Shown here in pieces: positions 3,070 through 52,304 of a stretch of 64,000 nucleotides of DNA. The stretch is taken from NCBI GenBank assembly GCA_042408215.1, contig JAYFMW010000006.1, positions 960,001-1,024,000 on the forward strand, read 5' to 3'. How positions within the stretch are numbered: position 1 is the stretch's first letter; every line of letters starts with the position of its first letter. The notes beneath the pieces are model-generated. The model had not been told where the DNA came from, searched no databases, and saw only the letters and a program-made list of their open reading frames with translations. A program made the translations under genes and the position numbers. The DNA is from Microcoleus sp. (GTDB lineage: Bacteria; Cyanobacteriota; Cyanobacteriia; Cyanobacteriales; Microcoleaceae).

Positions 3070-4056
3070 TCATGCAAGTGCAGACTCCAACCAAGCTATT
3101 ACATCCTCTTGAGTCGTAAAATCTAACAAAGCTGCTCCTAAATCATCTAACTCTTCACCAGATAACTGCTGGATATTAGCTTCAATTTCCGGTGCAACCT
3201 CGCCCACACGTCGCACAATCTGACGCAGAATTAATGCTATTTGTCCTGCAAGTTTCCCCCTTTCTATCCCCTGTTCAATGCCTTGTTCAATGCCTTGTTC
3301 AATGCCTTGTTGTATCCCCTGTTCGATTCCCTGTTGCAGTCCGATTTCTATCCCTTTCATCACCGAGCCGAGCTGATCTTGGATAAACATTTCTCGCTTG
3401 TCCAAATCTTCCGCTTCTTTGAGTGTTAAATTTTCTCGATCGGCAATTATCAGCGCGCTATTAATCTCTGGTACTGAGCTCAGTGTAGCTGGTACTGCAT
3501 CCAAAATAGGACTGTTTTTCATGAAGTAAATCCACTTTTCGGCTAGAGTTTCGAGTTCGTTCAATTCTTTTTTGAACTTCGGCAACTCAACAAACACTAA
3601 CTTTAACTCACAATTTGGATAGGCGAATTTTTCTTCTGTTTCTGTGAAAACAAAGTTAGAAATAAGTTTTTCTGTATTTTCAAATAAGATAAAATCGGTG
3701 ATGGTTAAAGCAATCACTGGATTTAATTTTAAGTAGCCTTCTCCAGCTTTTAGTTGAGTTGAATAGGTTTTAGCTGCATTGTAAACTACTCTTTTTTCAA
3801 AAGTGGCTACATTGAGTACCTGCATTTCTACAATCACTGTTTTGTTGCCGGTGATTTGAGCTTTCACATCCAGGTAAGTGTCTTTCAATCCTGTAACGCT
3901 GGCTGCTGAATAAGGGTCAATGATTTCTAGGTCTTGAATTGTGGGTTCTCCGTCATAGAGCATTGCATTCAGGAAGCTAATCAAAATTTCGGGATGTTCG
4001 GAAGATCCGAATATCCTTTGGAAGGCAAAATCTGTTTTGGGACTGATAAAACGCAT
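3070..4056 (-). CDS. Rpn family recombination-promoting nuclease/putative transposase (PD-(D/E)XK) with GIEQ repeats and DUF4351-like C-terminus
   Basis: MRFISPKTDFAF.RIFG, YLDVKA, VEMQV, FVELPKF and KWIYF motifs; 12-nt tandem repeats near the C-terminus. Confidence 0.9.
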   Translation of the reverse strand: MRFISPKTDFAFQRIFGSSEHPEILISFLNAMLYDGEPTIQDLEIIDPYSAASVTGLKDTYLDVKAQITGNKTVIVEMQVLNVATFEKRVVYNAAKTYSTQLKAGEGYLKLNPVIALTITDFILFENTEKLISNFVFTETEEKFAYPNCELKLVFVELPKFKKELNELETLAEKWIYFMKNSPILDAVPATLSSVPEINSALIIADRENLTLKEAEDLDKREMFIQDQLGSVMKGIEIGLQQGIEQGIQQGIEQGIEQGIEQGIERGKLAGQIALILRQIVRRVGEVAPEIEANIQQLSGEELDDLGAALLDFTTQEDVIAWLESALA

Positions 4057-4081
4057 ATATAGAAGGAAGAAGGAAGTTCGG

Positions 4082-4140
4082 CAACGGATTCTATAACGGA
4101 TGTAACGGATGTAACGGATGTAACGGATGTAATGGATGTC
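4082..4140. repeat. Nonamer tandem repeat (TAACGGATG)n; related copies at 12727-12785 and 25293-25381
   Basis: Visible tandem units, preceded by AAGTTCGGCAACGGATTCT in all copies. Confidence 0.85.
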
Positions 4141-9766: not shown

Positions 9767-10723
9767 ACAAACTCCTTTAGCATTTGGACTTTGGACAAAA
9801 AAGATGACGTTCGTCGCGTAAATTATGATTCTGTTGGCGAATTGCGATATACCTCTGGCGTCTGCTCTTCGGGCGATCGCATCTAGCAAAATTGTCTAGA
9901 TGGTTTGGAGTCTTAAGCATTTACAGCGGAAACCGCTGTTATGAGGTACACCCACTTATCGTTCAATCCTCCTAGGGACACTCCAAGAGCCGTGTCCCTA
10001 CCGTGTTTCATAACAGCGGGAACTGCTGTATGCCTGGTCAAAGGATATTCTGAAGCGCGATCGCACTTTTTAACTCATCAATTCATGCAAGTGCAGACTC
10101 CAACCAAGCTATTACATCCTCTTGAGTCGTAAAATCTAACAAAGCTGCTCCTAAATCATCTAACTCTTCACCAGATAACTGCTGGATATTAGCTTCAATT
10201 TCCGGTGCAACCTCGCCCACACGTCGCACAATCTGACGCAGAATTAATGCTATTTGTCCTGCAAGTTTCCCCCTTTCTATCCCCTGTTCAATGCCTTGTT
10301 CAATGCCTTGTTCAATGCCTTGTTGTATCCCCTGTTCGATTCCCTGTTGCAGTCCGATTTCTATCCCTTTCATCACCGAGCCGAGCTGATCTTGGATAAA
10401 CATTTCTCGCTTGTCCAAATCTTCCGCTTCTTTGAGTGTTAAATTTTCTCGATCGGCAATTATCAGCGCGCTATTAATCTCTGGTACTGAGCTCAGTGTA
10501 GCTGGTACTGCATCCAAAATAGGACTGTTTTTCATGAAGTAAATCCACTTTTCGGCTAGAGTTTCGAGTTCGTTCAATTCTTTTTTGAACTTCGGCAACT
10601 CAACAAACACTAACTTTAACTCACAATTTGGATAGGCGAATTTTTCTTCTGTTTCTGTGAAAACAAAGTTAGAAATAAGTTTTTCTGTATTTTCAAATAA
10701 GATAAAATCGGTGATGGTTAAAG

Positions 10724-12349
10724 TTGGAGTTTAGACTAAGCACAAATTGACTCAGCATGAGCTGAGTGGAAAGAATGGTTAATCAGCGAGAGGTTCTCAA
10801 GGTTAACTTACGAATTTTGTTGATTTTTGGAACCGACCTTTGGCCTTTTTTACCACAGGATAGCGACATCTTTGAGTACGAGGTTTTCCGGTTTGCCATC
10901 CGTCTGAATTTCCTCGCCGTTTGGGAGCAACAGCCGGAGTCCCAATCGTGATTAAAAGTGGAAGCATTGATTGTACAACCCTTCCAGGCGTCAACGAGGG
11001 CAGAGACTTTTGCCAGGGGAGACGAATTTCTCTGACTAGATCTTTAGCTAACCATAATTGCCAAGTTAGTAAAGGCATCAAATCGCTCCATCGTTCGCAC
11101 TGTTCTGGTGTGCTGAGCTTCGGCACAGTCCAATGTAAAGTTTGTTTAGCTAACCGATACCAATGTTCGATGGCAAAGCGACGTAGGTACAGTTGCCAAA
11201 TTTCAGCCAGAGATGGCATTTGGATACCAATCCAAACTAACCACAAAGGTTGACTATTTAATCGACCCGTTACAGTTTCCAAACGTTCGACTAAAATCAA
11301 GGTCATTGGATGTTTGGGACTGCCTCGAAAATGCAAGTCATCCCATTTTCTTAACCGAATTTTCCCGAATCTGGGTTCAACAGATTCCAGAGTTTGTTCT
11401 GGTGTCCACCAGCTTTGAGAGTCGTTGAGCTTAAACTGTTGACCGTGAATTTTGGGTCTGCCTTTACCACTATAGGCTGGGGGTGTTGACCACAAGCAAC
11501 GATTAGAACGGACACGCATCAATTTATCGGCGGCAATGGCTGCGGTGGCTTTGACCAAAGGGGCACACCCATACTCACTATCAAATAAAGCGATCGGTCT
11601 ATTCTGAAGATATTGACATACTTGTACCAATTGTTGAGCGCCAAAACCGATCGGGTTGTCCCAACTCGTAATACGTTCGTGTCTCAAGGGAAGCGCCCAA
11701 CTGCCACTACTTTCAGGTATCCAGGCAATCGTACTATATCCCTGACCAATGCCGACAGGTATGCCGTGAGGTAAGGCCGTGGGCTGGTGTTCATAGGTGC
11801 GTTCTTTGAGGGTACGTGCATGGGGTCTTAACCACGCTGTATGATCGATCGCTAATACTGGACGTTCTACTTGTGACATCTGTTGGATGTACAGTTGCAT
11901 CAATTTTTCTCGATCGGGTCTACAATCTTGTAGTGCTTCATAGGCGCTCGACCACTGACGCCGAAATAAGGGATTGAGAGCTAAATCTCCTAAACATGAG
12001 ACGTGGCGCGTCGTCATTACCGCGTCTGCTAGTTCAAAGGTGGCGTCTTTGGCATTGCCGAGACATTCATAAGCTAGTTGACGAAATTCCCGTAATTGTT
12101 CTAACTTCATGGCAGGTAGATTTGAGATTTTTAGCTGAATTCTCAATCTTCTACCCTTACGCTGTCTGTTGAAACTATCGCAGACAGTTTTTTTAGGTTG
12201 TTGCAAGTCTCCGAGAACGTCAACGGTCGCTGGCATTTATATTATGGTTGAGTCTGATAGCTTGTCGCCAGCGACCATTGCCGTTCTTGAGAACTGTGAG
12301 CTAGTCTCACAGCGATCGCACTTTTTGACCTGCTTAGTCTAAACTCCAG
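10724..12349 (-). mobile_element. Insertion sequence, 1626 bp, DDE transposase
   Basis: 18-bp perfect TIR TGGAGTTTAGACTAAGCA; TSD TTAAAG at 10718-10723 and 12350-12355 (one-base ambiguity); the empty site is visible in repeat copy 1. Confidence 0.95.
10803..12110 (-). CDS. Transposase (NF041680-like/IS701-related DDE superfamily)
   Basis: FRQ.AY..LG.AKDATFELADA, FRRQWSS.YEAL, AIDHT, FDSEYG and YLRRFAIEH motifs; intact ORF; start trimmed to MKLEQL. Confidence 0.9.
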   Translation of the reverse strand: MKLEQLREFRQLAYECLGNAKDATFELADAVMTTRHVSCLGDLALNPLFRRQWSSAYEALQDCRPDREKLMQLYIQQMSQVERPVLAIDHTAWLRPHARTLKERTYEHQPTALPHGIPVGIGQGYSTIAWIPESSGSWALPLRHERITSWDNPIGFGAQQLVQVCQYLQNRPIALFDSEYGCAPLVKATAAIAADKLMRVRSNRCLWSTPPAYSGKGRPKIHGQQFKLNDSQSWWTPEQTLESVEPRFGKIRLRKWDDLHFRGSPKHPMTLILVERLETVTGRLNSQPLWLVWIGIQMPSLAEIWQLYLRRFAIEHWYRLAKQTLHWTVPKLSTPEQCERWSDLMPLLTWQLWLAKDLVREIRLPWQKSLPSLTPGRVVQSMLPLLITIGTPAVAPKRRGNSDGWQTGKPRTQRCRYPVVKKAKGRFQKSTKFVS

Positions 12350-12928
12350 TTAAAGCAATCACTGGATTTAATTTTAAGTAGCCTTCTCCAGCTTTTAGTT
12401 GAGTTGAATAGGTTTTAGCTGCATTGTAAACTACTCTTTTTTCAAAAGTGGCTACATTGAGTACCTGCATTTCTACAATCACTGTTTTGTTGCCGGTGAT
12501 TTGAGCTTTCACATCCAGGTAAGTGTCTTTCAATCCTGTAACGCTGGCTGCTGAATAAGGGTCAATGATTTCTAGGTCTTGAATTGTGGGTTCTCCGTCA
12601 TAGAGCATTGCATTCAGGAAGCTAATCAAAATTTCGGGATGTTCGGAAGATCCGAATATCCTTTTGAATGCAAAATCTGTTTTGGGACTGATAAAACGGA
12701 TATATAGAAGGAAGAAGGAAGTTCGGCAACGGATTCTATAACGGATGTAACGGATGTAACGGATGTAACGGATGTAATGGATGTCAGTCAGAAAGAAGAA
12801 GTCGATGTGAAAATGCCATACTTGAGCGATTTTTAGGTTTGTAGTTGCGCTGAGCGCGAGTCAACGCGCAACTACAAAGCTTTTTTCAATGTGACACTTG
12901 GCCTTACTCCTGTATGTAAATGGAGCTA

Positions 12929-16600: not shown

Positions 16601-19600
16601 TAGAAATCGAAGGTAATCCTTTACCTGCGAGTTCGACATTTACAAAGCCATTTGCTGTCAAACCAGGAGTTGTAGCGTTCTCAACTTCCACCCGTTTGCC
16701 ATCCCAATTAAATATTGCCTCCAAAGGTTGTTTGAGAAATGGCAATTCCGAGATGCGAAAACTGCCACCGGCGCGAACATCCTGTAGGGGCGGTGCCCCC
16801 GTGCCCGCCCGTGCCCCCAGGCCCGCCCGTGCCCCCGTGCCCGCCCGTGCCCCCGTGCCCGCCCGTGCCCCCAGGCCCGCCCGTGCCCCCAGGCCCGCCC
16901 GTGCCCCCAGGCCCGCCCGTGCCCCCAGGCCCGCCCGTGCCCCCAGGCCCGTGGCGATCGGGCCAGACAAATTTAGATTACCGTTAAATAGTCCTCGGAG
17001 TAGGGGTAAATTTTGGGCCCCTGAGACTAAACCTTGGGCTTGCAAGCTTTGGCGTTGGGCTTCAAAGGCTTTCTGGAAGCGATTTATAGCAATTTGATCG
17101 CCGGCAATTGATGCCTGCCAATTCCCCGATTCGGCTTGGGCTTTGGCATTCACAGTACCTGCGCCGTTAGCAAGTCTAATTTGTCCTTCGCCGTTGGCGG
17201 TGATGCCGTTGGCGGTGAGATTTTCTACTGTTCCTAAAAGGCGGATTTTGCCGTCGAGATTGCCGTCAATTTCTGGTGGTAAATCTGCTGTCAGTAAACC
17301 GGTTTGTTTCAGGGTTTGTTCCAGATTCGCTAGGGGAATGCCGTTGGTTTCGAGGAATGTTTGCCAGTTGCCGTTTTCTAATTTGGCTGTAGTGTCGATC
17401 GCCCCAAGTCCATTGGCCAAAATCCGCCCTTCCCCACTAGCACTAATTCCCTGCGCTGTCAAGTTATCCAAACTGCCTGCCGCTTGGAATTGACCGTTAA
17501 TTCTGCCGTCAAATCCTTTCGGCAAAGTCGCGGTGATGGTAAACAGTTTGGTATCGCGAATAGTTTGTTCTAAGCGACTGAGAATAGGGCGATCGACATC
17601 AGCGAAAACTTGCCAACGTCCAGTTGCTAATTTTCCCTTAAAATCAACCGTACCGTCAGCAATATTTAATTTGCCACTGCTGTTAACGGCGATATCGGCG
17701 ATGGTTGATTTGTCAAGACTTCCCGCCGCTTGAATTTGATTGGATATTTGTCCGTCTAACGATTTGAGATTTGGGATTTTCGATTTGAGATTGTTGAGGT
17801 TGGCGACTGTTTGGGGGCTGTCAGCAGCCCAGGCCAAACCGACATCTAACAGCGGCAATCCTAAATCTACTAGACTACTGAGGTTAGTGCGATCGGTTTC
17901 GGCGATTCCTTGCCAATTTCCGGTGGCTAATTCTCCTTTAAAATTCACATTTCCTGCGCCCAGATTGAGTTGACCGCTGCCCGTCGCATTGATGCTGTTA
18001 GCGGTCAAATTGTCAAGAGTTCCCGCAGCTTTAAATTGACTTGATAGTTGTCCGTCAATGGATTTGAGATTTTGGATTTTGGATTTGAGATTGTTGAGGT
18101 TGGCAGTTGGCTGATTGTCAGTATTGAATGCTGAAGCAACATCTAACAGCGGCAATCCTAAATCTACTAGACTACTGAGGTTAGTGCGATCGGTTTCTAC
18201 GATTCCTTGCCAATTTCCGGCGGCCAATTCTCCTTTAAAATTGACCAGGCTGTCGGCAATATTGAGTTGACCATTGCCGCTAACATTGATGCCAGTCGCG
18301 GTCAAATTGTCAAGATTTCCCGCCGATTTAAATTGACTTGATAGTTGTCCGTCAATGGATTTGAGATTTTGGATTTTGGATTGGAGATTATCGAGATTAG
18401 CGACTGTTTGGGGGCTGTCAGTATTGAATGCTGAAGCAACATCTAAAAGCGGTATTCCTAAATCTACCAAGCGGCGGAGGTCAGTGCGATCGGTTTCGGC
18501 GATTCCTTGCCAATTTCCGGCGACCAATTCTCCTTTAACATTCACATTTCCTGCGCCCAGATTGAGTTGGCCGCTGCCGCTAACATTGATGCCAGTCGCG
18601 GTCAAATTGTCAAGAGTTCCAGCCGCTTTAAATTGACTTGATAGTTGTCCGTCAATGGATTTGAGATTTGGGATTTTCGCTTTGAGATTGTTGAGGTTGG
18701 CGGTTTGCTGATTGTCAGTATTGAATGCTGAAGCAACATCTAAAATCGGCAATCCCAAATCTACCAAGCGGCTGAGGTTAGTGCGATCGGTTTCTACGAT
18801 TCCTTGCCAATTTCCGGCGGCCAATTCTCCTTTAAAATTGACCAGGCTGTCGGCAATATTAAGTTGACCATTGCCGCTAACATTGATGCCACTCGCGGTC
18901 AAATTGTCAACATTTCCCGCCGCTTGAAATTGACCGGCTAGCTGTCCATCTAACGATTTGAGATTTTGGGTTTTGGATTTTAGATTGTTAAGATTGGCAG
19001 CAGTGGAATTGTGGGAATTACCAATTGCTAGAAAGGGCAATCCAAGATCGATTAAGCGATTCAGAGCAACTTTGTCAGTCTTGCCAAAAGCTTGCCAGCG
19101 TCCCGATTCTAGTTCGCCATTAACATTAACAATGCTGTCAGCAATATTCAACTTTCCTTGGCCACTAGCAGCGATCGCATTTAAACTCAAATCGTCCAGA
19201 GTTCCTGCCGCTTCGGCACTTCCGCTGAACAAACCTGCTAATTCAGGTGGTAAAGAAAGTCCTGGCACAACTTGCTGTAAACTATTGATAGCAATTCGAT
19301 CGCCCTTAATGAAAGCTTCCCACTGACGGTTATTTAACGCAGCATTCACATTCACAGAACCGTCGCCAACTTTCACAATCGTATTTGGCAAATCCGCTGA
19401 ATTGCGATCGGCACGAACTTCGCCACTAGCAGGAAAAGTCCCTTGTGGTGCTTGCCATTGAGCTCTAGCTTGAATGTTTTCTAAAGGGCCGAAAACTTGA
19501 GCCTTAGCTGAGACACTGCCAATTTTAACAGTAGCAGGAATTGGCAGAGCATAAACTTGGGCGATCGCATCTGCGGGCAAGTTTTCAGCTTGGAAGTCAA

Positions 19601-22208: not shown

Positions 22209-22433
22209 GAGTCAGCAGTCATTAGTCAGCAGTCATTAGTCATTAGTTTGCAGTCAGGATTTTAGTGTTTGCAGTCAGGACGAAGAGTCCTTATTGACTA
22301 AAAGCCAAACAGAGAGGAATCTTCGTCCTCACTACAAACTAATGCCTTGATATAGAGGAATCTTCGTCCTCACTACAAACTAAGGACTGCTGACTAAGGA
22401 CTGCTGACTAATGACTACTGACTAATGACTAAT
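22209..22433. repeat. Inverted STRR arms (AGTCATT/AATGACT) enclosing REP-like units, including a 42-bp-period direct repeat
   Basis: AGAGGAATCTTCGTCCTCACTACAAACTAA occurs twice, inverted relative to TTTGCAGTCAGGACGAAGAGTCCT. Confidence 0.8.
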
Positions 22434-22441
22434 AAAAAAAC

Positions 22442-23356
22442 ATGAAGAATTTGGAAGAACGGGGGCATCTGCTGACAGAACAGGTAAATGCCAATAGCGA
22501 GAATTTAGACCAACTCAATTCACTGGAATTGGTGGATTTGTTCAATCGGGAAGACGCTCAAACATTAAGCGCGATCGCCCGTGCCCGCGAGCATTTAGCC
22601 CAAACTATTGACATCGCCTCTGAATCTCTGCGTCAAGGAGGCCGCCTGTTTTACGTCGGTGCGGGTACTTCCGGGCGTTTGGGGGTGCTCGATGCGGCCG
22701 AATGTCCGCCCACCTTCTGCACGCCGCCAGAGCTCGTACAGGGCATAATTGCTGGGGGTGCGGGGGCCTTGGTGCGGAGTTCGGAGGATTTGGAGGATCG
22801 GGCCGAGGACGGGGAAAGTGCGATCGCCCACCGTCATATTACCAATCTAGATGTAGTTATCGGCATTACTGCTGGGGGTACGACGCCGTTTGTGGCGGGT
22901 GCTTTACTCTCCGCGCGCCAGCGGGGGGCGAAGACTATTTTTATGGCTTGTGTACCTGTCGAACAAGTGAGTTGTGAGGCGGATGTTGACATTCGCTTGT
23001 TAGTTGGCCCGGAGGTAGTGGCGGGTTCGACGCGCTTAAAAGCGGGTACGGTGACAAAAATGGCTTTGAATATTATTTCGACTGGGGTGATGGTGAAGCT
23101 GGGGAAGGTTTACGGAAATCGCATGGTTGATGTGGCGGTGACAAATAAGAAATTGCGCGATCGAGCCGTGAGGATGCTGCAAGATTTGACTGATTTGAAC
23201 CGGGATGAGGCGGGTTTTTTGCTCGAAAAAAGTGGCAAGTCTGTGAAGTTGGCTTTGATGATGCACTGGACTGGTTTGGACAAGGAAGAGTGCGATCGAA
23301 TTTTGGGCAAATTTCAGGGGAATTTGCGATCGGCTGTAGCATCAATTGGTCATTAG
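22442..23356 (+). CDS. murQ: N-acetylmuramic acid 6-phosphate etherase
   Basis: GAGTSGRLGVLDAAECPPTF, GPEVVAGSTRLKAGT and GKVYGNRMVD motifs. Confidence 0.97.
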   Translation: MKNLEERGHLLTEQVNANSENLDQLNSLELVDLFNREDAQTLSAIARAREHLAQTIDIASESLRQGGRLFYVGAGTSGRLGVLDAAECPPTFCTPPELVQGIIAGGAGALVRSSEDLEDRAEDGESAIAHRHITNLDVVIGITAGGTTPFVAGALLSARQRGAKTIFMACVPVEQVSCEADVDIRLLVGPEVVAGSTRLKAGTVTKMALNIISTGVMVKLGKVYGNRMVDVAVTNKKLRDRAVRMLQDLTDLNRDEAGFLLEKSGKSVKLALMMHWTGLDKEECDRILGKFQGNLRSAVASIGH

Positions 23357-23583
23357 TCAGTTGATTGTTGTCAGTTGTTAGTTGTTAGTTGTTAGTTGTT
23401 AGTTGTTATATCGTTTACGGTTGCATCGGAATGATTTAACCACAGAGAACGCAGAGAACACAGAGGGAGAGCAGAGAGATGAATAATTCCGATGAAGAGA
23501 GGATTTGATATTAGTAGTCAACTATCAACTATCAACTATCAACTATCAACTATCAACTATCAACTGTCAACTATCAACTATCA
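23357..23583. repeat. Inverted STRR arms (GTTGTTA / AACTATC) around a dispersed repeat also found inverted at ~43405-43491
   Basis: Shared GGTTGCATCGGAATGATTTAACC.CAGAG core. Confidence 0.75.
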
Positions 23584-24900
23584 ACAAAAACAGAGGATGT
23601 AAGCTGACTTTGATTTACACCTTGGACAATTCCCAAATAATTGCCGCCCGATTTAATCGCGGTAGAAACAACGCTTGCAGTTCCATCCAATCCGAAACTC
23701 AGAGCTTCAAAAGTCAAATTAGCAAATCCGATGCCATCAGTCAAACCAATGCTATCCCCAGCCACGAAATCGGTAATCACGTCTGCATTTGTTAAAGTAG
23801 CTGAAGCAGACAAACCTCCTGCTAGAATAAACGTATCATTTCCACTACCGCCGGTCAGAATATCTTGACCGCGATCGCCCGCCAACAAATCGTCGCCGTT
23901 ACCGCCAATCAAGATATCATCTTCTTTGCCGCCACGGATAGTATCGTTACCGTCAGATCCAATCAGGCGATCGTTATCATTGTTGCCGCTGATAAAATCA
24001 TTACCAACACCGCCATCTATGGAATCGGATTCTTTACCGCCCGATAAACTGTCATTACCAGCAGCACCGTTAATTGTATCAGCACCTTGCATTCCATTAA
24101 TAATGTCAACACCATCTCCACCGGTGAGATTATCCTTGCCAGAAAGGGCAAAAATTGGCAATCCAGCAGCATTAATCGGTATCTGAGTATCCCCACTGTC
24201 AGATAGGAAATAATTGCCGCCGCTGCTTGTATTTTTAGGGGCTTGTGTTGGGCTGCCATCACCTGTAGCATTGGCGATCGGTGAAGTAATAGATGCAGAT
24301 ATGTTTGGAGTAGGTGTGGGTGTAGGAGTAGGTGTGGGTGTAGGAGTAGGCGTGGGTGTAGGAGTAGGAGTAGGTGCGGGATTGACACTACCGTCAAGAG
24401 AAGTAGCAAAAACTTGCGTCCAATAGTAATTCCAATTTACACTACCAGTATCATTGGCTAAGAAATAGTAACCAATCCCAATTTCTTTCAGATTAGGATT
24501 GAGGATATTAGCACGGTGGCCGGCACTGTTCATCCATGAGTTTACAACTGCTTCCGGTGTAGAAGAACCCGCAGCAATGTTTTCCGCCGCCGCCGAGAAT
24601 TGATAGCCAGTTGCAGTAATCCGAGTGCCGATAGAAGAACCATCTTTGCCGGTATGATCGAAGAAGTCTTGCAGTGCCATGTTTTGGCTGTGAGTTTCCG
24701 CCGCATTGGCCAACTGAGTATTTAAGGTTAATGGCTGACAAACCTAATTTGCTGCGTTCTAAATTCGTAAGTTCTAGAACTTTATCAACAAAAGCCGGAT
24801 TCGTTGCAGTTGCGGAAATTTGAGAGATAAAACGCTCTCCACTCTTCGATAACATACTGATATCGAAAGGTTGAGAATCGGAATTGATTTGTTCAAACAT
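23574..24900 (-). pseudogene. CAP/SCP domain + (PT)n linker + RTX Ca-binding repeat protein, +1 frameshift near 24735
   Basis: VLELTNLERSKLGLS joins PLTLNTQLANAAETHS if one base is removed; span 1327 = 3n+1; WMNSAGHRANIL and GGxGND motifs. Confidence 0.85.
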
Positions 24901-25381: not shown

Positions 25382-25570
25382 AGAAGGAAGAAGGAAGAAG
25401 GAAGAAGGAAGAAGGAAGAAGTTATTTGTTATTTGTTATTTGTTATTTGTTATTTGTTATTTGTGATGGGCTACCAATAACAAATGACCAGTTAGCAACC
25501 AGTTACCAATAATAAATAACCAATAACTAATAACCAATAACCCCATGCCCTATGCCCTATGCCCTATGCC
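25382..25570. repeat. Mixed STRR arrays (GAAGGAA, GTTATTT, CCAATAA, TATGCCC)
   Basis: Visible tandem heptamers. Confidence 0.9.
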
Positions 25571-26217
25571 CCTTTTGCTTCTAGAGCAACTTGCTCTACC
25601 TCGTCTTTGGCGAGAATTTCTAGAGTAGTCTCTGCTTCTGCACCGCCCAACCGTCTTAGAGCTTGGGCGACTCTGTAACGGATCTGCCAATCTGCGTTTC
25701 CGGCGTAGGGGATGAGCAGTGCGATCGCCCGTTTGTCTCCCAATTCCCCTAATGCACCAATGGCCATAGTTTGGATCAATTCGTTTTCAGAAGTCAGGGC
25801 ATTTTCCAAAATCGGAAATGCTTTCGGATCTCCCATTTCTCCTAAAGCTGCGACGATGCTGAGTTGAACCAGCCACTCAGATGTATTGCTGTAAACTTGT
25901 TGTAAATCTTCGAGAGCATCGGTTAATTTCAATGCGCCCAAAGCATCGGCTGCTGCTGCTTGCACGTCGGGTTCAGGGTCGTTTTTTAGGCTGTGGAGCA
26001 GTACCTCTAAAGCGTTCGATAGATTCTGTGTGCCGAGGGTTGACATTTGGCTGACTGCGGCATAACGCACGCGGACGTTTTTGTCGCCGATCGCACTTTG
26101 AATCAAATTATAGGCGATCGCCGGTTCTAGTTGGCGTAGTTGGTTGACAGCTCGCAGGCGATCGCCAAAATCCTCGGAATTCAGCAATTGTTCTACAGAT
26201 TCAGGGGTAATGCTCAT
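25564..26217 (-). CDS. nblB: HEAT-repeat phycobilisome degradation protein NblB-like
   Basis: MSITPESVEQLLNSEDFGDRLRAVNQLR, RVRYAAVSQ, DVQAAAADALGAL and EWLVQLSIVAALGE. Confidence 0.85.
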   Translation of the reverse strand: MSITPESVEQLLNSEDFGDRLRAVNQLRQLEPAIAYNLIQSAIGDKNVRVRYAAVSQMSTLGTQNLSNALEVLLHSLKNDPEPDVQAAAADALGALKLTDALEDLQQVYSNTSEWLVQLSIVAALGEMGDPKAFPILENALTSENELIQTMAIGALGELGDKRAIALLIPYAGNADWQIRYRVAQALRRLGGAEAETTLEILAKDEVEQVALEAKGA

Positions 26218-43554: not shown

Positions 43555-43998
43555 TTAATCCCATAATTGGCAATCACCAATCAATTCAATTTGCCGCCCA
43601 TTATCGCAATAACTTAAACAAATTTGCAAATAATTATCTGGTTTGTAGGGCAATCTTTCCGCCCATTCGATCGCCACAATTCCCAAATCCATTTCTAATC
43701 CGTCCCAATAACTTTCCAAGTGCAAAGCCTCGGCTTCCTCTGGTTCTAACCGATATAAATCCAAATGATAAAGCGGAATTCGCCCGACTAAATACTCGTT
43801 AATCAGGGTAAAAGTAGGGCTATCAATAGAGTCTTGAATTCCCAAACCTTCAGCGATACCTTGAACTAGAGTAGTTTTGCCAGCACCTAAATCTCCTTGT
43901 AATAAGATTACACTGCCGGCGGGGAGCGATCGCCCTAATGCTACACCCAACTTGCGGGTAGCTTCAGCATCTGGAAGAGAAAGTATCATTTTAGTCAT
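43555..43998 (-). CDS. tsaE: tRNA threonylcarbamoyladenosine biosynthesis ATPase
   Basis: GDLGAGKTT, SPTFTL, HLDLYRL and IEW motifs. Confidence 0.96.
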   Translation of the reverse strand: MTKMILSLPDAEATRKLGVALGRSLPAGSVILLQGDLGAGKTTLVQGIAEGLGIQDSIDSPTFTLINEYLVGRIPLYHLDLYRLEPEEAEALHLESYWDGLEMDLGIVAIEWAERLPYKPDNYLQICLSYCDNGRQIELIGDCQLWD

Positions 43999-44211
43999 TA
44001 GTTATTAGTCATTAGTCATTAGTCATTAGTTATTAGTCATTAGTCATTAGTCATTAGTCATTCGTTATTTGTCCTATGTTATTTGTCCTATGTTATTTGT
44101 CCTATGTTATTTGTTACTCGCTTGGCTCTGCGAATAACCAATAGCCAATAACATGAGTCAACAGTCAACAGTCAACAGTCAACAGTCAACAGTCAACAGT
44201 CAACAGTCAAC
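43991..44211. repeat. STRR arrays (TTAGTCA, 14-mer GTTATTTGTCCTAT, CAACAGT)
   Basis: Visible tandem units. Confidence 0.92.
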
Positions 44212-44214
44212 AAA

Positions 44215-45615
44215 TTAAATGTTCTGGGCGCGACTGTACCACCGCAGCAACATCCCAGCTAGTCTCTGAGAATTGTGGCGAATTAAGCCTGTTGTTTTGT
44301 CCTCATCCATCACGTTTGCAATCACAATTCGCCTCCCCAATTCCGTTACGGCTGCTCGATCGAGCACCACAGGATAGGAATTCTCCTGAGAATAACGGAT
44401 CAAAGCTTTTGCAGAAGGGACTTTTCCTTGAACTACTACAGCATCAAATAGTGGCCGGCCGCAAGCACGGTCGATCGCCCGAATATGATCCGCTACCGTA
44501 TATCCATCAGTTTCCCCCGGCTGAGTCATAATATTGCAGACATAAATGCGCGGAACTTGACTATGGGCGATCGCATCGGCAATTTCCGGCACCAACAAAT
44601 TCGGAATTACACTCGTATACAGACTCCCCGGCCCAATAATCATAAAATCCGCTTCCCTCAGCGCTTCCACAACCCTCGGCAAAGCCGGAGGATTAGCAGG
44701 AGTACAGCCTATTTTGAGGATTTTCCCGTTAGCTTTCGTAATGCTGGACTCCCCCTCAATCCTCCGGCCGTCGGCCAGTTCTGCCCACAAAGAAACATCG
44801 CTCAGAGTAGCCGGCAGCACTTGCCCCCTCACGGCTAAAACCTTAGAACTAGCGGCGATCGCCTGTTCCAAATCTCCAGCAATATCGCTCATCGCCGTCA
44901 AAAACAAATTCCCAAAACTGTGACCAATCAAACCGTCACCGGCCCGAAAGCGATACTGAAATAACTCAGTCAATAACTTTTCCTCATCGGCCAAAGCAGC
45001 CAAACAATTGCGAATGTCACCCGGTGGTAACACCCCAATTTCCCGCCGCAGCCGCCCGGAAGACCCGCCGTCATCGGCCACCGTGACAATAGCAGTGATT
45101 TTGGCACTATAGTCCTTCAATCCCCTGAGCAAATTGGAAAGGCCCGTACCGCCCCCAATTGACACAATTTTCGGCCCACGGTGCAGGCGGCGGTGGTTGA
45201 GGAGTCGATCGACCAATTCCTCGTTTCCTTCGGGCATTAGCACTTGAGTAATGGAGTTCAAACTGCGGGTTTGTCCCCAGAGAATTAACAAAACACCGGT
45301 GGCGATGACTACGGGGCCCGATATGTAATTGGGAACAACTTCCGCAATCCACGTCAAAAAATTTCTCAACAATTGCAACAAAAAGAAAATGGGAGTCATC
45401 CCAGTCCAAATCGCTAAACCCAAACTAGCAAGTACCACTCCACTTGCACTGATCAGCAGCCACCGTTTCACCAACAGTCCGGGGGACAACCACTTGAACC
45501 ACTGGTGAACACGCCCGTTCCGCAAAGAGGGAGGGTAAGGATTTCTGGACTTGGCAACAACCTGTCTGGCTTTAGCCAAGATGCGGAGGGCTTTAGGAAA
45601 TAAACTAATTGACAT
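44215..45615 (-). CDS. yvcK: YvcK/CofD-related UDP-GlcNAc-binding gluconeogenesis factor
   Basis: [32 protein letters not shown] and GPGSLYTS motifs. Confidence 0.95.
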
Positions 45616-45786
45616 GATTAATTAGTCTTAAGGGTATCGGAACAGATCCAACTGACAAATTTAGAATACAAGAGAGTTTTGATTCTGACAGTCAATTTAA
45701 GTTATTAGTCATTAGTCATTAGTCAAGAGTCATTAGTCATTAGCTAGACTGATGACTGGGGACTGATAACATCTTAATCACATATT

Positions 45787-46569
45787 ATGGCTGAGCCGCT
45801 AATCGAACTCAAGGGCATAAGTAAGTCCTTTGGTCAGAGTCCGATCCTCGATCGAGTAGATTTGAGGATTGATCGGGGAGAGGCCTTGGCAATTATTGGC
45901 CCTTCCGGGACGGGGAAATCTACGATTTTGCGGATCATTGCGGGTTTGCTGGCCCCGGATGCCGGTGAGGTTTTTGTTCAGGGACAACGCAGGGTTGGAT
46001 GGGTGGACGACGTGGTAGATCCGATCGGGATTGGGATGGTGTTTCAGCAAGCGGCTTTGTTTGATTCGCTGACGGTGGAGGAGAATGTTGGTTTTTTACT
46101 GTACCAGCATTCTAAGCTGCCGCGCCGTCGGATTCGAGAATTGGTGGAGGAAAAGTTGGAGATGGTGGGTTTGCCGAAAATTGGCGATCGCTATCCCGCC
46201 CAGTTGTCTGGGGGAATGCGGAAGCGCGTCAGTTTTGCCCGGGCAATTATGGCGAATCCAGATCATGCTAGGGACAATCCAGAGGTTTTGCTGTACGACG
46301 AACCGACGGCTGGTTTAGATCCGATCGCCTCAACAGTAATTGAAGATTTAATTCGTGATTTGCAAGCCGCGAAAAGTGTTTGCAGCACTTATGCGATCGT
46401 CACTCACCAAGATAGCACCATCCGCCGCACAGCCGATCGCATCGTATTTCTCTATCAAGGAAAAGTGCAGTGGGAGGGAACTGTCAGCGATATTGCATCG
46501 ACAGATAATTTATTAATTCAACAATTTTTTAGCGGCAGCGTTAATGGGCCGATTCAAGTGATTGGATAG
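45787..46569 (+). CDS. mlaF: ABC transporter ATP-binding protein (MlaF/TGD3-like)
   Basis: GPSGTGKS, LSGGMRKRVSFARA and LYDEPTAGLDP motifs; upstream of mlaD. Confidence 0.88.
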   Translation: MAEPLIELKGISKSFGQSPILDRVDLRIDRGEALAIIGPSGTGKSTILRIIAGLLAPDAGEVFVQGQRRVGWVDDVVDPIGIGMVFQQAALFDSLTVEENVGFLLYQHSKLPRRRIRELVEEKLEMVGLPKIGDRYPAQLSGGMRKRVSFARAIMANPDHARDNPEVLLYDEPTAGLDPIASTVIEDLIRDLQAAKSVCSTYAIVTHQDSTIRRTADRIVFLYQGKVQWEGTVSDIASTDNLLIQQFFSGSVNGPIQVIG

Positions 46570-46945
46570 TTATTAGTCAGCAGTTATTAGTCAGCAGTCA
46601 TTAGTCATTAGTTATTAGTCAGCAGTCATTAGTCAGCAGTCATTAGTCATTAGTTATTAGTCAGCAGTCATTAGTCATTAGTCATTAGTCAGCAGTCATT
46701 AGTCAGCAGTCATTAGTCAGCAGTCATTAGTCAGCAGTCATTAGTCATTAGTTATTAGTTATTAGTCAGCAGTCATTAGTCAGCAGTCATTAGTCAGCAG
46801 TCATTAGTCATTAGTTATTAGTCATTAGTTATTAGTCAGCAGTCAGCAGTCATTAGTCATTAGTTATTAGTCATTAGTTATTAGTCAGCAGTCATTAGTC
46901 AGCAGTCATTAGTCATTAGTCAGCAGTCATTAGTCATTAGTCATT
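46568..46945 (+). repeat. 54-unit heptamer array (AGTCATT/AGTCAGC/AGTTATT)
   Basis: 378 bp in unbroken 7-nt register. Confidence 0.95.
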
Positions 46946-46960
46946 AAGCTTGAGGGTAAT

Positions 46961-47341
46961 ATGGCAACAAAAAGTTTTCAGGAATTGCGAGTTTATAAAT
47001 TATCAGAACGACTAGCTGATGAAATTTGGACAACTGTTAACACCTGGGAGCCGTTGGCCAAAAATACGATAGGCCAACAAATTGTTCGTTCAGCCGATAG
47101 CGTCGGTGCTAACATAGCAGAAGGAGTCGGACGAGGCAGCTATCAAGACAATAGACGTTTTGTCAAGATAGCTAGAGGTTCTTTATATGAAACTCAACAC
47201 TGGTTGAGACGAGCTTACACTCGAAACCTTTTAACTGTTCAACAAGTAAATACATTCACAGCAATCATTAATGACTTAGCCCCTCAATTAAACTCATACC
47301 TACAATCTATCGGGTCATCCCCTAAAAATTATGACCAATAA
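46961..47341 (+). CDS. Four helix bundle protein (23S rRNA IVS protein / Avd-like family)
   Basis: SFQELRVY, QIVRSADSVGANIAEG.GR and RFVKIARGSLYET..WL motifs. Confidence 0.95.
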   Translation: MATKSFQELRVYKLSERLADEIWTTVNTWEPLAKNTIGQQIVRSADSVGANIAEGVGRGSYQDNRRFVKIARGSLYETQHWLRRAYTRNLLTVQQVNTFTAIINDLAPQLNSYLQSIGSSPKNYDQ

Positions 47342-47434
47342 CTAAGAATTAATAACTCATGACTAATGACCAATAACTAATGACTAATGACCAATAACTA
47401 ATGACTAATGACTAATGACTAATGACTAATGACT
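47330..47434 (-). repeat. 15-unit heptamer array (AATGACT/AATAACT/AATGACC), inverted relative to 46568-46945
   Basis: Mostly reverse complements of the upstream units. Confidence 0.92.
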
Positions 47435-47445
47435 AAGGAGGCAAT

Positions 47446-48936
47446 ATGCGATCGCGAACTGTAAGAGAAGGTTCTGTCGGTTTTTTAATTTTAGTAGGAA
47501 TCGGCTTATTTGGAGGCTTAGTCCTCTGGCTGAATGGCGTGCAGCTAGGCAACCGCAACTACAAATTTGCCGTAGAATTTGCCAGCGCCCAAGGGATGCA
47601 AATCGGCACAACCGTCAGGTATCGCGGGGTTGCAGTCGGTAAAATTACTGCCATCAAACCGGGCTCCAACGGGGTAGACGTGACCCTGGAAATTTCCCCT
47701 GGTAGCTTAGTAATTCCCCGCGATGTGGCGATCGAAGCGAATAAATCCGGTTTAATTGGAGAAGCATCGATCGACATTACGCCCAATTCAATTCTACCAG
47801 AATCTTTACTTACCGCCAATCCTTTTAGTGCCGACTGTCCCCCTGAGATTATCTGCAAAAATTCCCGATTGAAAGGCCAAGCTGGAGTAAGTCTCGACGA
47901 ACTAATTCGCTCCACAGTCCGCCTAGCTAACTTGTACACAGACCCCGCCCTATTCAACAATATTAAATCGCTTTCTGCCAACACAGCAAATACGGCTAAA
48001 TCGGCGGCTAAACTCACTCAAGAATTATCTATTTTAACCAAAACTACGACAGGAGAAATCACCAGTTTGAGTCAATCAGTAAAAGGAGAATTTAGCAGCT
48101 TAAATCAATCTGTAAAAGGCGAGTTAGGAAGTTTAAATCAATCCTTAAAAGGAGAAGCCGGTATTTTAACTCAATCCCTGAGAGGGGAAATAGTCAGTTT
48201 AAATAAATCAGCTAAAGGAGAATTGTCAGCAGTTTCAACCGATATTAGAAAAGTTACAGCAACGGCCGACAATTCCACAAAAGAAGTAACTGCCGCTGCG
48301 ATCGCTTCCGCCAACTCAGTAACTCAAGCAGCCAATCAAATTACTTTAACAGCCAACCAACTCAATTCCTTAGTAGCAACCAACAGATCCAGTTTAGTCT
48401 CAACTCTGAATAATATCAATCAAGCCAGTCAAGAACTGCGTGTAACTGTCAGCAGTTTAAGTCCGACAATTAATCGAATTAACCAAGGACAAATACTGAA
48501 TAATTTAGAAGTTTTATCAGCCAATGCGGCCGAAGCTTCTGCTAATTTGCGAGATTTATCCACCAAGGTCAACCATCCCGCCAACTTGCTATTATTGCAG
48601 CAAACTTTAGATGCCGCACGGGCTACATTGCAGAACGTGCAGAAAATCACTTCCGACGTAGATGATTTGACAGGAGATCCGGCTTTCCGCAACAACATTC
48701 GCAGGTTATTCAACGGATTAGGAGGCTTGTTGGGTTCCACCGAACAATTGCGACAACAAGTTGCAGTATCTCAAACATTAGCTCCCCTTTCAGAGCAAGT
48801 AAATATCAACACAAATGGGGTAAATCAATCAATCGAGCCGGGATTTCCCAACTTGCACAAAAAACAAAAATTGCCAATTTTTCCCTCTCAAACCGCCACC
48901 AACGCAGAGCCTGTAGGCAGTGAAAATAATCCCTAA
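47446..48936 (+). CDS. mlaD: MlaD/MCE family protein
   Basis: REGSVG, GMQIGTTVRYRGVAVG and SGLIGE motifs; long coiled coil; DLTGDP.FR.N. Confidence 0.92.
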   Translation: MRSRTVREGSVGFLILVGIGLFGGLVLWLNGVQLGNRNYKFAVEFASAQGMQIGTTVRYRGVAVGKITAIKPGSNGVDVTLEISPGSLVIPRDVAIEANKSGLIGEASIDITPNSILPESLLTANPFSADCPPEIICKNSRLKGQAGVSLDELIRSTVRLANLYTDPALFNNIKSLSANTANTAKSAAKLTQELSILTKTTTGEITSLSQSVKGEFSSLNQSVKGELGSLNQSLKGEAGILTQSLRGEIVSLNKSAKGELSAVSTDIRKVTATADNSTKEVTAAAIASANSVTQAANQITLTANQLNSLVATNRSSLVSTLNNINQASQELRVTVSSLSPTINRINQGQILNNLEVLSANAAEASANLRDLSTKVNHPANLLLLQQTLDAARATLQNVQKITSDVDDLTGDPAFRNNIRRLFNGLGGLLGSTEQLRQQVAVSQTLAPLSEQVNINTNGVNQSIEPGFPNLHKKQKLPIFPSQTATNAEPVGSENNP

Positions 48937-49051
48937 AATATGGGATAATTGAAAATAGCAATACTTGCAAAATTTTCTGTTGCCTAACTCGGCGCGATCG
49001 GCAGAAAGGTGAATTAAATAAACAGCCTTTTAACTAAAAAAAACCAAACCT

Positions 49052-49843
49052 ATGACGCAAACATTATCAAAGCAGATCGAAATCAAAACCCAATATACTG
49101 TAACTTGGGAAAAGTTACCAGATGACTTTAAATTACCGGACGATCCCGTGGAAAACATCGACCAACCACTTTTAGCCGCAGCCCTGCGAGAAGCATTGGA
49201 TCTCGCAGGATTTATCTTAGCAGAAATGCTGATAGCTTCTAACTTTGGACTCTGTGCTAAAGTCAATGAAAAAACAGTAGTAAAAGCACCAGATTGGGTA
49301 TACGTTCCCTCAGTATTTCCCGCAGCAGCAGGAGAAATCCGCCGCAGTTATACTCCCAATGCGGAGGGGGAAGTTCCCGCAGTAGTGATGGAATTTTTAT
49401 CAGACGATCGTGAGGCTGAATATTCGATAAAACCGACATATCCTTATGGGAAGTGGTGGTTTTATGAGCGGATTTTGCAAGTTCCGGTTTATGCAATCTT
49501 TGAACCAAAATCGGGAAGATTGGAAGTATACAAACTGATTTCTGGAAAATACGAGCTGCAAGCAGCGGATGGTGGCCGTTATTCGCTTGAATCAATGGGT
49601 TTATTTTTGGGGGTTTGGGAAGGCGAAAAATCCCAGAGAAGGGGTTATTGGCTACGCTGGTGGGATGAGAATGGCAATTTGTTGCTGTGGGGTGCGGAAC
49701 GGGTGGAACAGGAACGTTTGCGAGCCGAACAGGAATGTTTGCGGGCGGAAGAGGAACGTTTGCGGGCGGAAGAGGAACGTTTGCGGGGCGATCGACTTGC
49801 AGCATACTTGAGAAGTCAGGGTATCAATCCCGATGGAATTTGA
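49052..49843 (+). CDS. Uma2 family endonuclease (DUF820) with C-terminal 21-nt repeats
   Basis: KAPDW.YVP, VMEFLS, YERILQVPVY.IF and (AEEERLR)n. Confidence 0.9.
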   Translation: MTQTLSKQIEIKTQYTVTWEKLPDDFKLPDDPVENIDQPLLAAALREALDLAGFILAEMLIASNFGLCAKVNEKTVVKAPDWVYVPSVFPAAAGEIRRSYTPNAEGEVPAVVMEFLSDDREAEYSIKPTYPYGKWWFYERILQVPVYAIFEPKSGRLEVYKLISGKYELQAADGGRYSLESMGLFLGVWEGEKSQRRGYWLRWWDENGNLLLWGAERVEQERLRAEQECLRAEEERLRAEEERLRGDRLAAYLRSQGINPDGI

Positions 49844-50098
49844 GGGTGTCGGGTATTGGTGACAACTTAAGACTGAAAGCCTTGAGAAATCTCGTTTTTA
49901 GCTGAGTCTAGATCCCCCTAAATCCCCCTTAAGAAGGGGGACTTTGAGCGTTTCCGGTTCCCCCCATCAATGCCTAAGACCAATAATCTCATAAACCCGC
50001 CCCCGCGCAACGATAAATCGATCGAACAAAAGTTAATAAAATTGAGAAAGCAGTTGCGCTGTCAAAAGATTAAACTAAAAGATTGATCGGGAGAAAAC

Positions 50099-50681
50099 AT
50101 GACACAAACAGTAGTCAAAAAGTCAATTACTGATAGTTTCCTGACTCTGAAAGGAGTGAGTTGGTCGCAATTTGAATCACTCGAAGCCGCTTTTGAGTCT
50201 GTCGGCGGTATCAAATTCGCTTACTTAGATGGGATTTTAGAAATTATGACAGTTCAGCCCCGAACATGAAGAGACAAAGGGTACTATCAGGGCTTTATTA
50301 GAAGCATACCTGAGAGAGAAGAGCATCCGATTTTATGTTAAGGGCGGGCCGACTTTTGGGAGTAAAGAATTAAGGGCAAGAAAAGAGTCTGATGAGTCGT
50401 ATAATTTGCAGACTAAAAAGGCAATTCCCGATTTGGCGATCGCAGTTATATTCACCAGCGGCGGCATTGATAAACTGCAACTATACAAGCGGTTGGGTAT
50501 ACCAGAAGTTTGGTTTTGGGAAGATGGAGTGCTGAGTATTTATTACTTGAGGGAGGATTACGAAAAAGTCGATCGCAGCGAGTTGTTGCCGGAGTTAGAC
50601 ATTGCTTTGTTAGTGAGATATGTAACTTACTTTGACCAATATGATGCTGTCACTGAATTCATCAAAGCCTTGCGGGAATAG
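50099..50681 (+). pseudogene. Uma2 family endonuclease, +1 frameshift near 50255
   Basis: MTQT..VSWSQF..YLDGILEIMTV / SPEHEE..PDLAIAVIFTSGGIDKL..Y..LGIPEVWFW; span 583 = 3n+1. Confidence 0.85.
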
Positions 50682-50704
50682 TTCAAGTAACCTAAAATTA
50701 AATA

Positions 50705-51055
50705 TACAGCGTATTCCAGGTTTATGAAGTGTAGGTGACCAGGCATTCCATTGGTGTCAACTTAAGCCTGAAAGCCTTGAGAAATCTCGTTTTTAGCTGA
50801 GTCTAGATCCCCCTAAATCCCCCTTAAGAAGGGGGACTTAAAGAGGCTTCCTGTCCCACACCCCCTACTCCCCTACTCCCCTTCTTAAGGGGAGTAGGGG
50901 TTGAGTAGGGGGCAAGAATGCGGGGGGATCTAGGCTTAATGGTCAAACAGCAGTCTCTGACTGGGTTTAACGTTAAGTTGACACCAATGGGCTCCTGGAG
51001 TGTCCCTAGGGGGATCGATCGCGCGGTATACTTCGTCAACCTGGAATCTGCTGTA
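50705..51055. mobile_element. Nested MITEs (inner CATTGGTGTCAACTTAA element at 50749-50989; partial relative at ~49854-49965)
   Basis: Same TIRs and shell as 38209-38546. Confidence 0.8.
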
Positions 51056-51078
51056 ACTAGAATAAAGGAGCGATCGAC

Positions 51079-51705
51079 ATGATTCAAGCCTTAACAAAAT
51101 TAGTAACATTTGACGAATTCATTGCGTGGTATCCTGAAAATTCAGAACACCACTACGAATTGCACAATGGAGTAATTGTTGAAAGGCCCAAAGGAACTGG
51201 CAAACATTCAGATTTAGGAGGTTTTTTGGTTGGTAAATTTCATTTTGAGATTCGACGACTGCACTTACCTTGGTCGGTTCCCAGAGAATACGTCCTTAAA
51301 CCCGATCGCGACGAATCAGGATATGAGCCAGATGTTATCGTTCTCGATCGACAGCAAGTGATAAATGAACCGCGTTGGGCAGCAGAATCGATGATCGCAA
51401 TGGGTTCGTCGGTGCGTTTAGCAGTAGAAGTAGTCAGCACTAACTGGCAGACTGACTATCTTACCAAACTGCGAGATTATGAAGAAATGGGCATTCTTGA
51501 ATACTGGATTGTCGATTATTTGGGATTGGGTGGAAGACGCTACATCGGTAATCCCAAACAACCTACGCTTTCGGTGTATCAATTAGTTGACGGGGAGTAC
51601 GATTTGAGTCAGTTCCGGGGAGACGATCGAATTGAATCGGCTGCTTTTCCAGAGTTAAATTTGACTGCTAAACAGGTGTTTGACGCAGGAATTGTGAATG
51701 AATAA
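51079..51705 (+). CDS. Uma2 family endonuclease
   Basis: YELHNG, YEPDVIV, VEVVSTNW and YEEMGILEYWIVD motifs. Confidence 0.9.
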   Translation: MIQALTKLVTFDEFIAWYPENSEHHYELHNGVIVERPKGTGKHSDLGGFLVGKFHFEIRRLHLPWSVPREYVLKPDRDESGYEPDVIVLDRQQVINEPRWAAESMIAMGSSVRLAVEVVSTNWQTDYLTKLRDYEEMGILEYWIVDYLGLGGRRYIGNPKQPTLSVYQLVDGEYDLSQFRGDDRIESAAFPELNLTAKQVFDAGIVNE

Positions 51706-51719
51706 GGAGTGAATTCGCC

Positions 51720-52304
51720 AGGAATACAATATTAGACAAAAAATTAGATCTGCCATTGCTATTTCCAGGATTTACCTGGGAACAATTCAAGACTTTATAA
51801 CCGATGCTGGATATTCCATGTGTTCGATTGTCGTTTTTAGATGAGGTGTTCGAGATTCAAAGAATGCCTGGAAGAAAACACGAAATAGTTAAGGCGCGAA
51901 TTGGTGGTTTGCTGGAAGTCTATTTGCTGAAAGCAGATATAGATTACACTCCAACAGGTTCGATGACATTAGAAAGCGAAGAATGTTTAGTCAGACGGGA
52001 AGCAGATAAATCTTACGAATTGGGTGCTGATAGAAAACGTCCACATTTAGCGATCGAAGTTGTCGTCTGTAGTGGCGGTATTGATAAACTGGAGGCCTAC
52101 AAACGCCTCAAAATCCGTGAAGTTTGGTTTTGGGAAAAAAGCCAATTGTCTCTGTACGCTCTCAGAGAGGAAGGATACGAACAAATTGGCAGTTCCGAAT
52201 TGCTACCAGAACTCGATATTGCTTTGTTTGTTAGGTGCATGAGTATCGCCAATCATGTTGAGGCTATCAAAGAATTTAACAGTGCGTGCGATCGGGCTTT
52301 GTAG
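51720..52304 (+). pseudogene. Uma2 family endonuclease with probable ATG>AGG start loss and in-frame TAA at 51798
   Basis: In-frame upstream TWEQFKTL*PMLD; EADKSY, LAIEVV..SGGIDKL.AY. Confidence 0.8.

Follow-up and report, generated by a model that had tools for sequence, protein, structure and literature searches.

A small cassette, in which a four-helix-bundle gene is enclosed between a heptamer arm and an inverted heptamer arm, occupies positions 46568–47434 of a 64,000-nucleotide stretch of Microcoleus sp. DNA (the whole of this stretch is called the window below). It is located between two protein genes, an mlaF-like and an mlaD-like one, and not within a 23S or 16S rRNA gene. Comparison with relatives revealed a patchily filled junction, near-identical genes at unrelated junctions and the replacement of one cassette type by another. 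In our opinion, the chances are about even that the cassette spreads as a selfish mobile element at such junctions, using its pairing arms, an Avd-like protein and a host enzyme.

Anatomy of the cassette and its protein

The initial annotation described 54 upstream and 15 downstream in-register inverted heptamers, flush with the mlaF stop codon and the mlaD Shine-Dalgarno (SD) sequence, and this description proved to be exact (Table 1). The upstream array is composed of AGTCATT (27 units), AGTCAGC (17) and AGTTATT (10), and the downstream one of AATGACT (6), AATAACT (4), AATGACC (2) and three other units, 10 of the 15 matching an upstream unit exactly when reverse-complemented. The mlaF stop codon TAG (46567–46569) shares bases with the first unit of the 5' arm, the TAA of the cassette gene (47339–47341) lies inside the second array, and AAGGAGG (47435–47441) continues the heptamer register, with the mlaD ATG at 47446. 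Among relatives, the 5' arm varies in length from 46 to 378 nt.

Table 1. Features of the mlaF–mlaD junction with the inserted cassette (window positions)
Feature	Positions	Strand
Host gene, ABC ATPase (mlaF-like)	45787..46569	+
5' arm, 54 in-register heptamers AGTCATT/AGTCAGC/AGTTATT, G/T-rich polarity	46568..46945	+
Leader with SD-like GAGGG of the cassette gene	46946..46960	+
Four-helix-bundle gene, 126 aa, TIGR02436 / PF05635, cassette type A	46961..47341	+
3' arm, 15 heptamers AATGACT/AATAACT/AATGACC, reverse complement of the 5' arm	47330..47434	+
mlaD Shine-Dalgarno AAGGAGG, host sequence, retained in the empty allele	47435..47441	+
Host gene, MlaD/MCE-domain protein	47446..48936	+

The names mlaF and mlaD rest on context, because the cut-offs of the curated models were not reached: the upstream ABC ATPase scores 156 bits on the MlaF model NF008809 (cut-off 441), and the downstream gene matches Pfam MlaD and stays below the cut-off of TIGR04430. 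The cassette consists of a single ORF, and profile searches gave no match to any transposase family in it. A scan of the cassette region for promoters and terminators gave no excess over shuffled sequences, and an Rfam search of 45000–49500 gave no match. A run of small genes, which we take to code for Uma2-family proteins, follows mlaD at 49052–52304 of the window. Two places in the window, 3257–4139 and 10270–12784, about 7–8.6 kb apart, share 12/24-bp and 9-bp tandem repeats, which suggests a duplicated segment or element. At 17710–19000, a 297-bp unit with TTTTGGA-type heptamers inside is repeated 4.3 times with 84% identity.

The product of the ORF at 46961–47341 scores 94.3 bits against TIGR02436 (cut-off 24) and 97.1 bits against PF05635 (cut-off 33.8). 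Its AlphaFold (AF2) model, obtained with a 41-row alignment, comprises four long helices (pLDDT 92) and resembles the solved structures of Xcc0516 (2GSC; TM 0.86, rmsd 1.1) and BT_0352 (2RLD). Structural relatedness to Avd of diversity-generating retroelements (DGRs), asserted in the initial annotation, is borne out by this predicted fold, with a TM of 0.72 for 4DWL (0.72–0.76 over the Avd structures 4DWL and 8UB7) at a sequence identity of 12–16%. Both solved family members, 2GSC and 2RLD, contain five chains per entry, and by analogy with them the cassette protein is predicted to be a homopentamer.

As judged from dN/dS, the cassette protein is under purifying selection: the value is 0.20 for the cassette gene (16 type-A alleles), compared with 0.12 for mlaD and 0.08 for mlaF. 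Broken copies of the gene nonetheless occur (L005, L012, L022 and L132). The closest named homologues of the protein belong to Microcoleus and Tychonema. Homologues from Planctomycetota, Acidobacteriota and Verrucomicrobiota are 58–67% identical to the type A protein and are as close to it as the nearest paralogue of the same genome (59% identity) or closer.

Heptamer arms and their pairing

Tandem arrays of period 7 number 1540 in the genome, and those of other periods 8–250. As many as 1385 of the heptamer arrays are intergenic, and only four have a family gene. Being tandem 7-mers, mainly intergenic and abundant in a filamentous cyanobacterium, they correspond to the repeats known as STRR. 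Because of this abundance the neighbourhood of arrays proves little by itself, and it is polarity that decides. Arrays directly after stop codons are predominantly G/T-rich (417:71), those directly before start codons C/A-rich (231:41), and close inverted pairs are G-first in a ratio of 58:4 (17.6:18.5 in permutations). The cassette follows this rule for the host genes and reverses it for its own gene, which therefore sits inside the hairpin loop. Cages of cassette polarity surround only 10 of 5458 crude ORFs, three of which are family genes; the fourth family gene starts with GTG and is hence outside the crude ORF set. A Uma2-like gene (C20:376929–377708) is among the few non-family ORFs caged in this manner.

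All four family genes of the genome are caged by inverted arms, each by a different heptamer. The idea that genes of this family are accompanied by inverted arrays, put forward in the initial annotation, was confirmed by their enrichment: an inverted score of at least 2.5 was found at 80 of 95 non-duplicate loci of genus and order relatives (34 for direct arms), which represent most full-length family matches among the relatives, fragments left out, and at 58 of 63 loci (9 direct) of other hosts, including Planctomycetota, Acidobacteriota and Verrucomicrobiota. The same inverted-arm test is passed by eight of 260 small ORFs taken at random, four of them in cassette polarity. Five further genomes gave 20 inverted and 4 direct cases among 30 loci, 5 of which repeat earlier ones. 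7-mer arms are missing from some family members, L055, L071 and L110 among them. The combination of a host stop codon at the 5' arm and a host start codon at the 3' arm was found in the sense orientation in 33 of 65 site clusters, whose delimitation is approximate, and in the antisense orientation in four.

The architecture has several variants. In L037 (G000:C30:90671-91490), a four-helix-bundle gene lies antisense between dnaX-like and holA-like genes and is flanked by one complete heptamer hairpin on each side; L050 and L052 are likewise of this double-hairpin type. At several loci of the Acidobacteriota/Planctomycetota group (L179, L185, L190, L191 and L184), the 3' arm is inside the end of the cassette gene, and at several loci from these phyla the stop codon of the cassette gene overlaps or abuts the next host start codon. 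A design parallel to the four-helix-bundle gene with 7-mers is provided by a GxxExxY gene (TIGR04256; L227, G000:C7:183417-183764, minus strand) located between inverted arms of 9-base repeats, of the GCGCAGAGG type upstream and its complement downstream. The second GxxExxY copy, L228, has a 9-mer pair downstream only.

The distribution of motifs bears on the explanation that the protein is a host regulator, namely a repeat-binding factor that acts on the heptamer hairpins of the genome, influencing RNA stability or translational coupling, and whose own cage serves for autoregulation. Such a role would agree with the dN/dS of 0.20, with the fact that 867 of the 1540 arrays are at most one mismatch from an arm motif of the resident cassettes (mean 125 and maximum 651 for random sets of motifs), and with the T-T-n-G-T motif core retained across phyla in the clade of the query. 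Outside this clade, however, motif and protein went together in only 6 of 13 cases, and the patchy, often broken copies (1–10 per genome) and the turnover of sites suit a selfish element better, so that we regard a host regulator as improbable. The cross-phylum motif distance drops from 3.7 at 20–29% protein identity to 2.6 at 60–69% in a sample dominated by the clade of the query. The assumption that the protein reads the heptamer was not upheld, as co-inheritance explains this trend equally well.

Three genomes without a family match have 0, 25 and 93 arrays per Mb and three genomes with a match 67, 114 and 236 (120–140 kb sampled per genome); a relation between array density and the presence of the family is suggestive only. 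Gene-less inverted heptamer pairs are located in the window at 22210–22433, 23349–23585, 25382–25571, 43991–44212 and 45700–45770. Two of them are nested pairs of different motifs, and the loops contain other small elements and no gene remnants. The initial annotation considered such pairs to be possible empty derivatives of the cassette. This is favoured by their polarity and motif families, which are the same as those of the cassette arms, and by the occupation of the mlaF–mlaD junction by gene-less pairs in seven relatives; the loops themselves give it no support, since tblastn and blastn searches of this genome with the four resident genes revealed no gene remnants in gene-less loops and recovered only the four family loci (remaining matches, E > 0.02).

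In the predicted RNA fold the arms pair with each other (z −9.4 vs 20 shuffles), and the resulting terminal stem encloses an ORF, as in the intervening sequences (IVSs) of rRNA. A stem of up to ~100 bp had been proposed; pairing of the arms holds, but the duplex is interrupted, and its helices run unbroken for at most 38 bp if G-U pairs are counted and 26 bp with Watson-Crick pairs alone. Helices of at least 20 bp were predicted at 95 of 170 loci. The arm duplex has no sense-strand advantage (79 vs 89 loci; 44 vs 35 sites, p 0.37), and selection on the stem at the RNA level was rejected in view of the symmetric stability of the sense and antisense duplexes.

The RNA data are assembled contigs (24 listed runs), which cannot show RNA ends. 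Type-A sequence with the 5' arm attached was found in RNA libraries X1 and X10, in contigs that are not proof of transcription. In library X2, one contig, with only 30 letters on the left side, spans an empty junction and is near the query haplotype, which it matches at 3 of 4 and at 15 of 17 of the listed sites where L002 differs. Its junction has four A's and is identical to the DNA allele of G005, and no piece of type A or B was present in X2. Splicing was rejected as the origin of this contig, since four A's are unobtainable by cutting type A, and the contig was read as a genomic empty allele.

These data concern the explanation of the cassette as an intervening sequence of mRNA, according to which the purpose of the arms is to be cut by RNase III, releasing the gene RNA and splitting or tuning the mlaF–mlaD message. 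RNase III cleavage is also compatible with a selfish element and becomes the purpose only in the former case. The 38-bp helix, the helices of at least 20 bp at other loci and five RNase III domain genes over the cut-off in the genome are consistent with such a role, and so is the 23S IVS of Coxiella burnetii, for which PMC4990558 describes a gene of the same protein family, tandem heptamers in the 5' region and RNase III cutting of a 28-bp stem. At the same time, the duplex has no sense-strand advantage, one of the four copies in the genome is antisense to the host operon, the gene contig continues into the 5' arm in two RNA libraries (contigs only), and there is no obvious need to cut mlaD from mlaF, as empty and gene-less alleles exist. 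We consider it quite unlikely that cutting is what the arms are for.

Alleles at the junction and probable movement of the cassettes

Among 24 loci of the genus at the mlaF–mlaD junction, 14 carry the gene (10 of type A and 4 of type B), seven have gene-less pairs and one is empty; the other two are a type A split over two contigs and an assembly gap. These filled, gene-less and empty alleles indicate the unit-like mobile behaviour that was suspected from the window. Type A arms consist of AGTCATT, type B arms of AGTTGGC opposite GCCAACT; both arms change together between the cassettes, and the type B gene is 66–72% identical to type A. In 79 genus genomes, 28 A-like genes, 17 B-like genes and one broken B were found, and all 14 additional B loci adjoin mlaD. 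The sister of the B gene on the tree is a Hormoscilla gene at a different site (96/85), and A and B as one clade were not rejected (p 0.066). Six genomes of other families have no gene at the mlaF–mlaD junction.

The empty allele, with a gap of 11 nt, is carried by the closest relative of the query genome and is rare (one of the 79 genus genomes by pattern search). The cassette stands in place of two A's of this allele, with no exact target duplication in this one filled/empty pair. The empty allele may be a deletion instead of a pre-insertion site.

Secondary insertions at the junction were noted in L012, L022, L116, L120 and L010. Palindromic REP-like elements interrupt two type-B genes, a small element is present in one 5' arm, an IS-like end lies ahead of another, and a TTTTAGA inverted pair is nested in a gene-less allele. 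In L026, from another family, the same junction has an independent gene-less inverted heptamer pair of the TTAAAAA type.

The tree of the flanks was based on 600 + 450 nt directly beside the junction in 45 distinct alleles, four duplicates and one allele without a located mlaF being left out. A and B are interleaved on it: type A requires 15 changes, compared with a mean of 15.0 after shuffling, and type B requires 11, compared with 13.9; a tree that unites the B alleles in one clade was rejected (p 2.7e-5). Gene-less alleles are likewise scattered over the tree, so exchange needs no gene in cis. Sister hosts may have different cassettes (L023/L116, gene dS 1.6 and mlaD dS 0.11), and distant hosts the same one (L016/L023, 0.17 and 0.67, respectively). 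In each of 13 windows of the flanks, even in the 21 nt closest to the junction, Fst by cassette type is about zero. In 42 allele pairs, the far flanks are 12.5% apart, the cassette genes 3.5% and the last 30 nt of mlaF 12.7%, and in 117 pairs of A and B carriers these last 30 nt are also 12.7% apart, although allele-pair statistics are not independent. The mean divergence of the gene is lower than that of the flanks (8.4 vs 10.4% for A; 4.2 vs 7.6% for B), which could partly result from a slower rate. As far as sequence comparison can resolve, it is shown by these alleles that cassette A was replaced by B without detectable transfer of the flanks.

General recombination in the genus is a real rival to cassette replacement. 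Mutual rejection was found for the trees of mlaF and mlaD (p 0.001 and 9e-5), though their rejection of the cassette gene's tree is stronger, and the retention index is 0.39–0.75 for flank SNP windows and 0.40 for cassette type. Tree incongruence alone was dropped as a proof of homing, since the mlaF and mlaD trees also disagree. A recombination hot spot with short co-conversion tracts, hinted at by a left–right flank correlation of about zero within 90 nt of the junction, was also rejected, the window profile near the junction (0.25–0.47) overlapping that elsewhere (0.38–0.86).

Movement to other junctions is indicated as well. The genus has 64 full-length family genes at 20 junctions, each patchily filled (12, 9, 7, 6, 4, 4, 4, 3, 2, 2 and 2 genes, plus nine singles). 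Genes with 90–93% DNA identity, the same heptamer and a similar leader occur at unrelated junctions; two near-identical ones are at unrelated junctions within one genome (G014), each beginning at a host stop codon. There are 1–10 family copies per genome, and none were found in 5 of 41 genomes.

Alternatively, the gene could be a passive passenger, captured long ago by hairpins that grow at junctions by slippage and inter-arm conversion, its alleles being shuffled by homologous recombination and the donor flanks eroded later. The presence of the gene in only four cases beside 1385 intergenic arrays, the 93 arrays per Mb in a genome without a family match, general recombination in the region together with the gene flow between Microcoleus lineages published in PMC10923798, and a B allele (L012) that resembles another B over ~100 nt of mlaF are all in line with this scheme. 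It leaves unexplained, however, why one family is caged in several phyla and other small genes are not, why near-identical genes are found at unrelated junctions, and why flank divergence is undiminished next to recently shared genes, and a passive passenger seems to us unlikely.

Profile searches found no mobility enzyme in or near the cassette: recombinase, nuclease and reverse transcriptase (RT) are all absent. None of the four family copies in the genome has an RT beside it; the nearest one is 8 kb from the C30 copy and has no TR/VR-like pair around it. Judging by their N-termini, the four RT matches of the genome are presumably group II intron RTs. A link with DGRs was rejected, as the cassette has neither an RT nor a TR/VR pair as its neighbour.

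Known systems and significance

In its layout the cassette resembles an ORF-bearing IVS; by defining features it is not an rRNA IVS, DGR or IS. In REPIN/RAYT and MITE/IS systems, an autonomous gene between inverted repeats is accompanied by many gene-less inverted pairs, and homing elements convert one site between alleles. Unlike all of these, the cassette has no transposase or endonuclease fold, its arms are tandem and of variable length, and no target duplication was seen. ORF-bearing 23S rRNA IVSs (Coxiella burnetii, Leptospira; S23p; PMC4990558) similarly have the family gene looped by terminal inverted sequences and are suspected of mobility without an established mechanism. Unlike them, the cassette sits between protein-coding genes, flush with the stop codon and the SD, has arms made of long heptamer arrays of many motifs, occupies many sites per genus, and has an ORF under purifying selection.

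STRR of filamentous cyanobacteria, Xanthomonas GGGAATC pairs (PMC4692102) and TAACTGA repeats (PMC4679880) are intergenic heptamer arrays like the cassette arms, often forming inverted pairs and ending just before start codons; the cassette arrays differ in being arms of a gene cassette with a strict polarity rule. Term searches of the accessible text of PMC4692102 and PMC4679880 gave no link between heptamer repeats and the four-helix-bundle family. Avd of DGRs (PDB 4DWL, 8UB7; PMC6182149, PMC10053308) has the same four-helix-bundle fold, and unlike it the cassette has no adjacent RT or TR/VR pair and shares only 12–16% identity. No published description of a gene-plus-inverted-heptamer unit outside rRNA was found in a literature search that covered few subscription journals.

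If the cassette is a selfish mobile element, the following scheme may be proposed. Relatives keep, lose or swap the whole unit at the mlaF–mlaD junction. The arms would pair, looping the cassette gene out, and this pairing would bring the mlaF stop codon beside the mlaD SD, which could make the insertion cheap for the operon. The predicted Avd-like pentamer may bind the arms as RNA or single-stranded DNA and, once bound, would recruit a host enzyme for copying. Avd itself forms a pentamer, binds to a region of non-coding RNA and is needed for its RT to be active (PMC6182149), and by analogy its RNA binding and RT activation may serve as a model for the cassette protein. The ~1400 gene-less intergenic arrays of the same polarity would then be non-autonomous products or targets of the process. 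A broader proposal, possible though decidedly tentative, is a new class of minimal mobile elements, consisting of an Avd-like pentamer and two arms with no catalytic gene, which would home into stop-to-start junctions and rRNA loops, swap cassettes without flanks and seed STRR hairpins, DGR Avd and rRNA IVSs being its offshoots.

What is new at the mlaF–mlaD junction is population-level evidence that the cassette alone is replaced and that it moves to new junctions. Three old puzzles are linked by it: the function of a very large protein family, the source of ORF-bearing rRNA IVSs and of their mobility, and the heptamer repeats that abound in cyanobacteria and other bacteria. The question can be tested at this junction, since close relatives provide four natural alleles (A, B, gene-less and empty) in nearly the same flanks. 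Movement without a transposase or long homology, if true, would mean that genes enter operon junctions by a hitherto unrecognised route.
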